Source of the DNA: Escherichia coli
GTDB taxonomy: Bacteria > Pseudomonadota > Gammaproteobacteria > Enterobacterales > Enterobacteriaceae
Assembly: GCF_003334765.1 (NCBI RefSeq)
Contig: NZ_QOWT01000090.1
Length of the DNA: 1,014 bases
Reading direction: 5' to 3' (one strand)
Under the pieces are notes generated by a model that was given only the letters and a program-made list of their open reading frames with translations, searched no databases and was not told the DNA's origin. The position numbers and the translations under genes are program-made. Each line of letters begins with the position of its first letter. Position 1 is the first letter of the stretch. Below are positions 1 to 1,014 of this stretch, in pieces.

Positions 1-136
1 CAGCATCCTGCAGTGGCGCAATATACTCACTGAATTCCTGGATGTAGAACTGTGTGGTGACGGTCTTCCAGCCATTCGGCTCCTGCTGTATCGAAGCATA
101 CCAGGCTATTTCAATATCGCTATGCTGCGGCAGCAT
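1..136 (-). CDS. Partial CDS (start codon at 136-134, continues past window position 1): tail-fibre-assembly (Tfa)-like protein, N-terminal 45 codons
   Basis: Minus-strand translation from ATG (complement of 134-136) is MLPQHSDIEIAWYASIQQEPNGWKTVTTQFYIQEFSEYIAPLQDA, open to the window edge. An in-frame TAA (complement of 137-139) lies directly upstream, so the ORF cannot start earlier. A Shine-Dalgarno-like AAGGGG (complement of 141-146) sits 4 nt before the ATG. The segment EYIAPLQDA resembles the conserved ..EHIAPLQDA.. stretch of lambda-type Tfa proteins as I recall them. Unverified by search; only 45 codons are visible. Confidence 0.5.
   Translation of the reverse strand, partial: MLPQHSDIEIAWYASIQQEPNGWKTVTTQFYIQEFSEYIAPLQDA
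123..132. repeat. Left copy of 10-bp exact direct repeat TGCTGCGGCA, lying inside the first codons of the minus-strand Tfa-like gene
   Basis: Plus-strand 123-132 tgctgcggca is identical to 894-903. With one 3-nt indel (GCA unit) the match extends to 123-136 versus 894-904, which includes the start codon on the minus strand. Confidence 0.6.
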
Positions 137-192
137 TTAACCCCTTGTAATTCATCGCCATAATTGATTTAATTCACAAATAAAACTATAAC
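137..192. promoter_or_regulatory. AT-rich divergent intergenic region between the minus-strand Tfa-like gene and the plus-strand methyltransferase; candidate sigma70-type promoter for the methyltransferase
   Basis: 56 bp at about 27% GC (15/56, hand count) between two divergent start codons. Best plus-strand candidate: -35 TTGATT (164-169), 17-bp spacer, -10 TATAAC (187-192). A weaker alternative is -35 TTGTAA (145-150) with -10 TTTAAT (168-173). Hexamer matches in AT-rich DNA are weak evidence. Confidence 0.3.
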
Positions 193-861
193 ATGGTGAA
201 ATTAATGAAAAAAAACACAGATGATGGGGCTAAAATTTACACACCACTTACCCTAAAGCTTTATGACTGGTGGGTTTTGGGAGTATCAAATCGGCTTGCA
301 TGGGGATGTCCTACAAAGGAACACCTTCTTCCACACTTTCTGGAACATTTAGGTAACAACCATCTGGATATTGGTGTTGGAACTGGGTTTTACCTTACTC
401 ACGTACCTGAGAGTAGTCTGATATCTTTAATGGATTTGAACGAAGCTAGCCTGAACGCGGCATCTACAAGGGCTGGGGAATCAAAAATTAAACATAAAAT
501 TAGCCATGATGTTTTTGAACCTTATCCCGCGGCGTTACATGGTCAATTTGATTCCATTTCCATGTTTTACCTTCTTCACTGCCTGCCTGGAAATATATCT
601 ACAAAAAGCTGTGTAATACGCAATGCGGCGCAGGCCTTAACTGACGATGGAACTCTATACGGAGCCACAATTCTTGGCGATGGAGTTGTGCACAATAGCT
701 TCGGTCAAAAACTGATGCGCATTTACAATCAGAAAGGCATCTTTTCAAACACAAAAGATTCCGAAGAAGGCTTAACACATATACTCTCAGAGCATTTCGA
801 GAATGTTAAAACCAAGGTTCAAGGTACTGTAGTAATGTTTTCCGCTTCAGGGAAAAAATAG
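193..861 (+). CDS. Class I SAM-dependent methyltransferase (Rossmann fold), substrate unknown; alternative start at 205 gives 218 aa
   Basis: Single long ORF in the provided track (222 aa, stop TAG 859-861). Residue numbers count from Met at 193. Motif I LDIGVGTG at aa 58-65 (nt 364-387). Acidic post-I residue D81 in SLMDLNE. Motif II GQFDSISMFYLL at aa 117-128 (nt 541-576). Motif III-like LTDDGTLYGATIL at aa 149-161. N-terminal aromatic segment YDWWVLGVSNRLAW precedes motif I. No DPPY/NPPY or PC/ENV motifs. Confidence 0.85.
   Translation: MVKLMKKNTDDGAKIYTPLTLKLYDWWVLGVSNRLAWGCPTKEHLLPHFLEHLGNNHLDIGVGTGFYLTHVPESSLISLMDLNEASLNAASTRAGESKIKHKISHDVFEPYPAALHGQFDSISMFYLLHCLPGNISTKSCVIRNAAQALTDDGTLYGATILGDGVVHNSFGQKLMRIYNQKGIFSNTKDSEEGLTHILSEHFENVKTKVQGTVVMFSASGKK
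195..199 (+). promoter_or_regulatory. Shine-Dalgarno-like GGTGA serving the internal in-frame ATG at 205
   Basis: GGTGA matches the GGUGA portion of the extended anti-SD complement and lies 5 nt before ATG 205-207. No SD-like sequence precedes ATG 193-195 (upstream is caaataaaactataac). Confidence 0.35.
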
Positions 862-868
862 CATCCAA

Positions 869-901
869 CCGCAGCACGTTCTTGCTTAAGACGTGCTGCG
901 G
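869..901. terminator. Perfect 11-bp inverted repeat (stem 869-879 / 891-901, 11-nt loop 880-890) between convergent genes; candidate terminator, better oriented for the minus strand
   Basis: ccgcagcacgt (869-879) is the exact reverse complement of acgtgctgcgg (891-901), 8 of 11 pairs G:C. On the plus strand no T-tract follows (cataatccc). On the minus strand the stem is followed by ttggatgc then tattttt (complement of 853-868), a T-tract displaced by 8 nt. Non-canonical in both directions. Confidence 0.4.
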
Positions 902-903
902 CA
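894..903. repeat. Right copy of 10-bp exact direct repeat TGCTGCGGCA, overlapping the right arm of the hairpin and lying just beyond the stop of the minus-strand Tfa gene
   Basis: Plus-strand 894-903 tgctgcggca is identical to 123-132. On the minus strand it reads ATG CCG CAG CA (complement of 894-904), against ATG CTG CCG CAG CA at the left-hand gene start. Confidence 0.6.
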
Positions 904-915
904 TAATCCCAATGA

Positions 916-1014
916 TTACTCCCTGACAGGGTTCGTAGGCCACTCAATATCAGGTGCAGTTGATGTATCAACACGGTTCAGCAACACCCGATACTTTTTC
1001 CAGGCTTCCAGCAA
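916..1014 (-). CDS. Partial CDS (C-terminal 32 codons plus stop; N-terminus lies beyond window position 1014): tail fibre assembly protein (Tfa) family
   Basis: Minus-strand translation entering at 1014 is [32 protein letters not shown], ending at TAA (complement of 916-918). This closely matches the C-terminus of phage lambda-type Tfa proteins as I recall it (..[33 protein letters not shown]). Recalled from memory, not searched. Confidence 0.65.

Follow-up and report, generated by a model that had tools for sequence, protein, structure and literature searches.

Which compound is methylated by the small enzyme that lambdoid prophages of Escherichia coli carry beside their tail-fibre genes, and is it the phage or the host cell that profits? 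This question is raised by a stretch of 1,014 nucleotides (nt) of E. coli DNA (assembly GCF_003334765.1, contig NZ_QOWT01000090.1), which was analyzed at its full length and is called the window in the following. The one long open reading frame (ORF) in the list of its ORFs spans positions 193 to 861 on the plus strand and comprises 222 codons for amino acids. A first-pass annotation, made from the letters alone, had described the product as a small class I S-adenosylmethionine (SAM)-dependent methyltransferase borne by a prophage. Judged by sequence identity, the ORF is an intact allele of ybcY, a prophage-borne SAM-dependent methyltransferase gene. By analogy to fungal relatives we propose, with about even confidence, that YbcY is a stand-alone, soluble O-methyltransferase which methylates a free small molecule at an enol or phenol hydroxyl and which serves as host-benefiting cargo of lambdoid prophages. 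The precise target cannot be read from the sequence, as the annotation had stated, and this still holds after our searches by fold, family and gene neighbourhood.

Identity and prevalence of the gene

The entire window is 100% identical to the chromosomes of many E. coli strains, and at least 80% of it is present in 3790 of 5426 complete E. coli genomes (~70%). At the same coordinates, RefSeq annotates WP_000239881.1, a "class I SAM-dependent methyltransferase" whose protein sequence is 100% identical to the translated ORF. The coding sequence (CDS) of WP_000239881.1 is likewise annotated at a 100% identical site in E. coli 042, while the phage record PhiR26_1 names the identical protein YbcY. 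In addition, residues 5–222 match the profile PHROG 2132 over its positions 1–218 of 218 (E = 8e-157). Flanks included, the window is ~99% identical to the tfaD-ybcY-tfaX region of the cryptic prophage DLP12 in K-12 MG1655, where the same gene (b0562) lies between the same neighbours, tfaD/tfa and tfaX. What sets both copies apart is a deletion of 2 bp: the K-12 copy, annotated as pseudogene, is one because the loss of window bases 207–208 destroys ATG205, whereas the copy in the window is intact. YmfD of prophage e14, the "putative SAM-dependent methyltransferase" of K-12, was considered as the identity of the gene as well and was rejected, since BLASTP revealed no similarity (E = 14).

Databases already contain the gene together with its protein sequence and class, and the identification is an ordinary finding. 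As it stands it is of little weight, because many genomes bear an annotation that agrees with the description in the first-pass annotation. None of the consulted E. coli papers that mention ybcY gives a function for it, and a literature search for WP_000239881.1 found no mention.

To count the alleles, we employed allele-specific queries, with a 51-mer spanning the deletion as the K-12 junction (blastn). The deleted junction occurs in 380 genomes, largely laboratory strains, and the undeleted form in ~3440 of 3822 carrier genomes, which corresponds to ~90% undeleted and ~10% deleted copies. In a spread sample of carriers, a span shorter by 2 bp was seen in 3 of 29 full-length rows, and all three sampled non-K-12 genomes contain an annotated, intact CDS of 669 nt. 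Referred to all complete E. coli genomes, an apparently intact and constrained copy of ybcY is present in ~63%. Truncated versions of ybcY exist in the protein database.

These counts bear on the possibility that ybcY is nothing but a decaying, non-functional passenger of defective prophages. Such decay would explain the start-codon deletion in K-12 and about a tenth of the carriers, the truncated database entries and the flanks of the gene, which consist of tail-fibre gene debris and insertion sequence (IS) elements. However, the undeleted allele prevails among carriers, sampled genomes annotate an intact CDS, and the gene occurs in inducible, plaque-forming phages. Furthermore, the family keeps its catalytic and SAM-binding residues without variation, and the ratio of nonsynonymous to synonymous substitution rates (dN/dS) amounts to 0.10–0.20 against four to five enterobacterial homologues, which argues that ybcY is not a decaying passenger. 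Consequently, we regard decay as very improbable.

Protein class and fold

All class I motifs on which the first-pass annotation had based its assignment could be located in the sequence, in canonical order and together with the pre-motif segment. Motif I reads HLDIGVGTGFY (residues 57–67 of the 222-residue form, with GVGTG at 61–65), D81 is the acidic residue that closes beta-2, HD stands at residues 105–106, FDSISMFYLLHCLPG at 119–133 and GTLYGATILG at 153–162. The pre-motif helix YDWWVLGVSNRLAW (24–37) is among the best conserved segments of the family. The Pfam families Methyltransf_12, Methyltransf_23, Methyltransf_25, Methyltransf_11 and Methyltransf_31 match with E from 6e-9 to 3e-4. 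In line with this, an AlphaFold2 model built on 33 homologues predicts a Rossmann fold with confidence (predicted local distance difference test score, pLDDT, 89.8; predicted template-modelling score, pTM, 0.86), with a seven-strand class I topology and an N-terminal helical cap. The features that define class I are all found: in the model, the seven-stranded sheet with alternating helices and the C-terminal beta6-beta7 hairpin, and in the sequence, the GxGxG motif I and the acidic end of beta-2, the residue which binds the ribose of SAM. Counted from its probable start at ATG205 (see below), the protein comprises 218 residues and is wholly accounted for by this core fold. Its highest 19-residue hydropathy is 0.95, so that no membrane segment is predicted, which agrees with the cytoplasmic location suggested before.

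Structural comparison by Foldseek against the PDB gave, within the top 50, only small-molecule or lipid-headgroup methyltransferases. They include the phosphatidylethanolamine (PE) N-methyltransferase 8ys9, JHAMT, PfPMT, SgvM, AtmM/RebM and plant O-methyltransferases. A sequence search of the PDB returned only UbiG and JHAMT, the insect juvenile-hormone-acid O-methyltransferase. Among solved structures, these two match best by sequence (E from 1.6e-5 to 7e-4, over motifs I–III), with an alignment that is limited to the SAM-binding core, about residues 41–165 of YbcY. As for UbiG, no NCBIfam UbiG or UbiE model matched at E <= 0.1, and ybcY lies outside any ubiquinone biosynthesis context. Other NCBIfam models stay far below their cut-offs, namely PmtA (NF045882; 15.6 bits vs 390, E = 0.01), RquA (NF038261; 16.9 bits vs 175) and CpaM (NF043040; 17.4 bits vs 180).

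A phage-borne methyltransferase might act on nucleic acids, either as an orphan DNA enzyme with an anti-restriction or epigenetic role or as a modifier of tRNA or rRNA. For YbcY, the evidence speaks against it on several levels. A motif scan of the protein found neither a [DNS]PP[YFW] nor a PCQ motif, and the single ENV at residue 199 (218-residue form) sits in the C-terminal hairpin, out of order for motif VI of C5 enzymes. There is no Pfam match to DNA_methylase, N6_Mtase, MethyltransfD12 or related DNA or RNA methyltransferase families, and the 218 residues include no target-recognition domain. Four genome contexts of E. coli and the genomes of two phages show no restriction-enzyme or defence gene near ybcY, and PADLOC reported nothing meaningful, its sole match being mad2 (E = 0.003, 14 bits). 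Moreover, close homologues are chromosomal outside of phages, fungal ones lie within polyketide clusters, and a His-Cys pair of YbcY is kept in proven polyketide O-methyltransferases. A nucleic acid as target is thus highly improbable, and we are confident that YbcY is a small-molecule class I enzyme rather than one that acts on nucleic acids. The statements of the first-pass annotation that the enzyme does not modify DNA and has no restriction gene at its side were borne out.

Relatives and proposed chemistry

While the class of YbcY was readily assigned, its chemistry has to be approached through its relatives. In a large protein database 2296 homologues were detected. An exhaustive profile search gave 1751 cluster representatives (clusters at 50% identity), 419 of them with E < 1e-30; nearly all of these 419 clusters comprise ~219 residues and match end to end. 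The family is spread over Proteobacteria, Planctomycetes, Acidobacteria and fungi, the latter represented by Endocarpon, Letrouitia, Alyxoria and Atractiella. A second search yielded members in Planctomycetes, Methylocaldum, Trichodesmium, Burkholderiales and others, with uninformative names. BLASTP aligned YbcY to a protein of the lichen fungus Endocarpon with 44% identity (E = 4e-53), and Foldseek against AFDB50 retrieved dozens of fungal members with 33–46% identity and a template-modelling (TM) score of ~0.9, among them a VrtF-named protein and a Cladonia "putative O-methyltransferase". That YbcY belongs to a compact family of ~219 residues common to bacteria and fungi is a new observation of this study.

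One fungal member leads to experimentally studied enzymes. The "Methyltransferase verB" named in Swiss-Prot shares 36% identity with YbcY over 228 columns (TM 0.91/0.89, E = 8e-26, Foldseek). VerB is the methyltransferase of the verrucosidin cluster (PMC8176439). The nearly identical DovB O-methylates an alpha-pyrone hydroxyl, as demonstrated by heterologous expression and deletion, and AurB, CtvB and AstB perform the equivalent O-methylation of the alpha-pyrone 4-hydroxyl in the aurovertin, citreoviridin and asteltoxin pathways (PMC12312803). Such fungal polyketide alpha-pyrone O-methyltransferases are the sole characterised relatives with >30% identity that we found, and as the nearest characterised ones they narrow down the probable chemistry. 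Homology between YbcY and VerB/DovB, AurB, CtvB and AstB is full-length (~220 residues). It includes the N-terminal helix YD..VL..SN..W.C, and VerB-type enzymes and YbcY also have the C-terminal segment YN.KGIF.N..D in common. Presumably, both share the SAM-dependent methylation of an acidic hydroxyl as well.

Residue conservation allows to sketch how this reaction might proceed. In 73 diverse members, Y24, H57, G65, D81, S121, H129, G157, N186 and D189 are invariant (numbering of the 222-residue form), and Y16, D25, W37, C39 and C130 nearly so. The hhalign alignment places Y16, Y24 and H129 of YbcY on Y19, Y27 and H132 of PfPMT with a probability of 69.6%; the PfPMT sequence used was checked against PDB 3uj6. 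PDB entries of two PfPMT mutants, Y19F and H132A, are among the Foldseek matches. Y19 and H132 form the catalytic dyad of this enzyme. In YbcY, SAM would be held by the GVGTG of motif I, by D81 and by H105-D106. H129, situated in LHCLPG just after beta-4, could act as the general base that deprotonates the acceptor, assisted by Y16 on the N-terminal YDWWVL lid helix. The methyl group would then pass from SAM to the deprotonated acceptor by SN2 transfer. As acceptor we envision a free metabolite or xenobiotic of fairly hydrophobic character, which would be methylated at an acidic enol or phenol hydroxyl.

A weak hint toward phenolic substrates might come from an E. coli homologue of 84% identity. 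It resides in an IS-rich islet together with genes for a tannase, a family-3 (catechol-type) O-methyltransferase, an esterase of the PHB-depolymerase family and a TetR regulator (locus L025, 3115–11095, and locus L026). NCBIfam searches with the neighbours in this islet added nothing decisive.

Two other small-molecule chemistries have to be weighed at this point. First, YbcY might be a phospholipid or phospho-base N-methyltransferase of the PmtA/PfPMT kind that acts on PE or phosphoethanolamine and thereby alters the envelope of the lysogen. Its best Foldseek match in the PDB is indeed the R. thermophilum PE N-methyltransferase 8ys9 (E = 5e-12), PfPMT entries make up much of the top 20, and the weak NCBIfam match mentioned above is to the PmtA of Legionella (E = 0.01). 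PfPMT (3uj6) and PmtA (8ys9) combine a class I core with an N-terminal Tyr helix and a His after beta-4, as in YbcY, and the alignment of Y16, Y24 and H129 with their PfPMT counterparts points in the same direction, as do the neighbours ompT and lom, which represent envelope-related cargo. However, identity to these enzymes is 15–20% and the TM score ~0.6, they methylate nitrogen, and the C-terminal lid domain of PfPMT is missing from YbcY (218 vs 266 residues). We therefore consider an N-methyltransferase of this kind improbable. Second, the methyl group might go to a different atom or functional group of a small molecule (carboxyl-O, C, S or N). YbcY could then be a detoxifying enzyme comparable to Tam, TehB, TPMT or Rv0560c, or a carboxyl methyltransferase like JHAMT. 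To this possibility we assign a modest chance: the respective matches reach 11–21% identity and cover mainly the SAM-binding core, while the characterised relatives above 30% identity all methylate hydroxyl oxygens.

The proposal of a hydroxyl-directed O-methyltransferase has to face several objections itself. At 36% identity to VerB, its O-methylation chemistry is likely and not more than that. Whereas VerB-type genes lie inside polyketide synthase (PKS) clusters and their products act on a defined polyene-pyrone, the bacterial genes stand alone, with no PKS and no conserved partner; no PKS was found near the E. coli gene or in the 80 bacterial species loci described below. The top Foldseek match of the predicted model in the PDB is the PE N-methyltransferase, and the Tyr/His correspondence, which depends on the hhalign match, leads to an N-methyltransferase too. 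The tannase islet is present in two contigs only and is interrupted by IS elements. Expression in the lysogen is deduced from an in vitro promoter map of K-12, and for bacterial members, any assignment of function has come by comparison only.

Prophage setting

The prophage origin suggested by the first-pass annotation was confirmed in several genomes, where ybcY lies beside stf/tfa, lom and J. In E. coli 042 it is found at the end of a lambda-like prophage at the ompW site, in the order J, lom, stf, tfa, ybcY (on the opposite strand) and tfa debris. In O157:H7 TX 376-2 and strain A17, the gene is located between ompT and paralogues of yciG, yciF and yciE plus a manganese catalase gene, followed by tfa and stf. 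This yciGFE/catalase block (locus L015, 7240–9453, paired with locus L017, 7247–9460, in TX 376-2 and A17) represents stress-related cargo beside tail-fibre genes. Furthermore, inducible lambdoid phages possess ybcY, as seen in 14 near-complete records (ev243, 2G7b, the PhiR series, Kati and Turner), again by tail-fibre genes and ompT, and the cassette adjoins differing genes of the tail-fibre region in ev243 and PhiR26_1. Across these contexts, the neighbours are tfa, stf, lom, ompT, yciGFE paralogues and IS elements.

The gene is placed between tfa and a tfa remnant, runs antisense to the tail genes, has a reported promoter and a downstream hairpin, and deviates in its GC content: 41% in ybcY (36% at third codon positions) and 27% in the upstream spacer, compared to ~50% in the flanks. 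Such low GC of gene and spacer fits a foreign origin and the binding of H-NS. By these sequence traits, ybcY is a prophage moron, that is, horizontally acquired cargo near tail-fibre genes. Its product would probably benefit the host cell and not the virion, like its neighbours ompT, manganese catalase and the yciGFE paralogues in some strains.

The ybcY cassette is bracketed by direct repeats of ~227 nt, both composed of the hairpin and the 3' end of tfa, with 89–90% identity, 1050 bp apart (locus L001, 19817–20043 vs 20867–21092), which suggests that homologous recombination between the tfa repeats would allow movement or loss of the cassette. The features of the window are given in Table 1. 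In RefSeq, the tfaX-like piece at the left end of the window is a tail fiber assembly protein annotated as partial. On the minus strand, Rfam IS009, a candidate small RNA (sRNA) of E. coli, matched over tfaX and tfa at 1–113 and 959–1014, with alignments that were truncated and stayed below threshold.

Table 1. Features of the 1,014-nt window; positions count from its first letter.
Feature	Position	Strand	Basis and remarks
tfaX-like ORF, 5' part (MLPQHSDIEIAWY...APLQDA...), tail-fibre-assembly remnant	1..136	-	divergent from ybcY; near-identical to K-12 tfaX
Alternative promoter-like site TTAACC-16-CATAAT	137..164	+	consensus scan; weak, such sites no more numerous than expected by chance
Sigma-70 promoter TTGATT-17-TATAAC in the divergent spacer (27% GC)	164..192	+	PMC3946193; hexamers and spacing read in the window
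N-terminal extension MVKL of the RefSeq form, four codons	193..204	+	missing from all more distant homologues
ybcY coding sequence from its probable true start, 218 residues plus stop	205..861	+	starts of homologues and PHROG profile, Pfam, AlphaFold2, dN/dS
Site of the 2-bp deletion (GA)	207..208	+	missing in the K-12 DLP12 allele; pairwise alignment with NC_000913 582,152-582,806 (locus L009, 6153-6807)
Right direct-repeat copy, part inside the window (hairpin and 3' end of tfa)	867..1014	.	left copy ends at window position 43
Hairpin between convergent ybcY and tfa	869..901	.	11-bp stem CCGCAGCACGT / ACGTGCTGCGG; folding -23 kcal/mol, z = -5.4
Intact tfa, 3' end	916..1014	-	convergent with ybcY; RefSeq: 585-nt tfa adjoining the tail-fibre gene stf

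Beyond its position, the cargo status of ybcY permits a more specific speculation: YbcY might be a detoxifying O-methyltransferase of lysogenic conversion, which caps toxic or reactive phenolic or enolic compounds of the gut and, together with OmpT, manganese catalase and the YciGFE paralogues, raises the fitness of the lysogen. Targets may be plant polyphenols such as gallate and pyrogallol, or microbial 4-hydroxy-pyrone or 4-hydroxy-quinolone toxins. In this narrow form, we hold the idea to be rather unlikely.

Homologues outside of phages

Whether genes of this family are always associated with phages had been raised by the first-pass annotation, and the answer is no. Homologues with 56–68% identity to YbcY occur in several non-phage settings, and fungi possess members as well. 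In Salmonella enterica, the homologue (56% identity, 1111 member sequences) lies on the chromosome near an SseJ-like gene (locus L003, 5987–8663). It is situated 460 bp downstream of a gene of the PMT_2 family, which comprises ArnT-like glycosyltransferases. The homologues of Yersinia and Enterobacter are chromosomal too. In Klebsiella pneumoniae (64% identity, 192 member sequences), the gene stands beside two GerE-type regulators, an EamA transporter and iro-like siderophore genes (locus L021, 1–7654), a region which presumably resembles the rmpA region of virulence plasmids. The Citrobacter homologue is found beside DinI and CdiI genes, while distant members, such as that of Methylocaldum, have unrelated neighbours.

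In addition, a neighbourhood scan of 100,044 species genomes led to 80 loci, whose ORFs were called and clustered all against all. The only neighbours shared between genera were SDR and LysR paralogues of a generic kind. In one Pseudomonas lineage only (12 loci within L064–L089, at ~3800–5900), a gene for a methyl-accepting chemotaxis protein of 685 residues precedes the homologue by 19–159 bp on the same strand. This adjacency could have been inherited as synteny or could reflect a link in function.

Start codon and expression signals

The ORF proposed by the first-pass annotation exists exactly at positions 193–861 and is annotated so in RefSeq. Its Pfam and PHROG matches, its 2296 homologues and its low dN/dS are far more than chance would give. 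Its start, in contrast, has probably to be shifted to ATG205. Residue 5 of the 222-residue form is where each of the 32 aligned homologues begins, and the PHROG 2132 profile as well. In addition, the spacer between ybcY and tfaX contains TTGATT-17-TATAAC, reported as constitutive sigma-70 promoter of ybcY in a map obtained by genomic systematic evolution of ligands by exponential enrichment (SELEX), together with a reported H-NS site (PMC3946193). In the window, the hexamers occupy positions 164–169 and 187–192, so that the -10 hexamer borders directly on ATG193. Transcription from here would begin at ~199–200 and therefore leave only ATG205, with a very short leader. Because the homologues begin at residue 5 and the -10 hexamer abuts ATG193, the true start is probably ATG205, which yields 218 residues and leaves the MVKL extension untranslated. 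The alternative site at 137–164, if used, would give a leader of ~33 nt with a Shine-Dalgarno-like GGTGA at 195–199. Position 205 is the probable start with either promoter-like site.

Since ybcY is AT-rich cargo that has its own sigma-70 promoter and is transcribed against the tail genes, it is probably expressed in the lysogen and subject to silencing by H-NS. On the opposite side of the spacer, the -10 hexamer of K-12 tfaX, which is listed in the same map (PMC3946193), overlaps the tfaX start codon, and the divergent transcript may therefore be non-coding.

Downstream of ybcY, the hairpin at 869–901 has no adjacent U-tract, the nearest T-run being ~10 nt off on the minus strand, and a scan of the window for intrinsic terminators called none, this hairpin included. 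On its minus strand, the Rfam family CssrB, an sRNA of Shigella, matched with its 3' end but below threshold (36 bits vs a gathering threshold of 76). RefSeq furthermore lists a "hypothetical protein" of 45 residues (WP_001309429.1) at 806–943 on the minus strand, a call that overlaps the hairpin and the 3' end of ybcY and is probably spurious.

Biological significance

YbcY is null in the K-12 reference, yet apparently intact in ~63% of complete E. coli genomes. Classical genetics could therefore not see the enzyme, as K-12 carries the start-codon deletion. With polyketide O-methyltransferases as sole characterised members found, the family points to a concrete and testable class of substrates. 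The tail-fibre-proximal cargo slot of lambdoid phages, in which ybcY resides, is the slot that carries virulence and stress genes, and an enzyme that modifies small molecules would, if the proposal is true, add a different kind of lysogenic-conversion function to it. Should even the speculation about detoxification turn out to be true, YbcY would confer a trait of most natural E. coli strains that was overlooked owing to the null allele of K-12.

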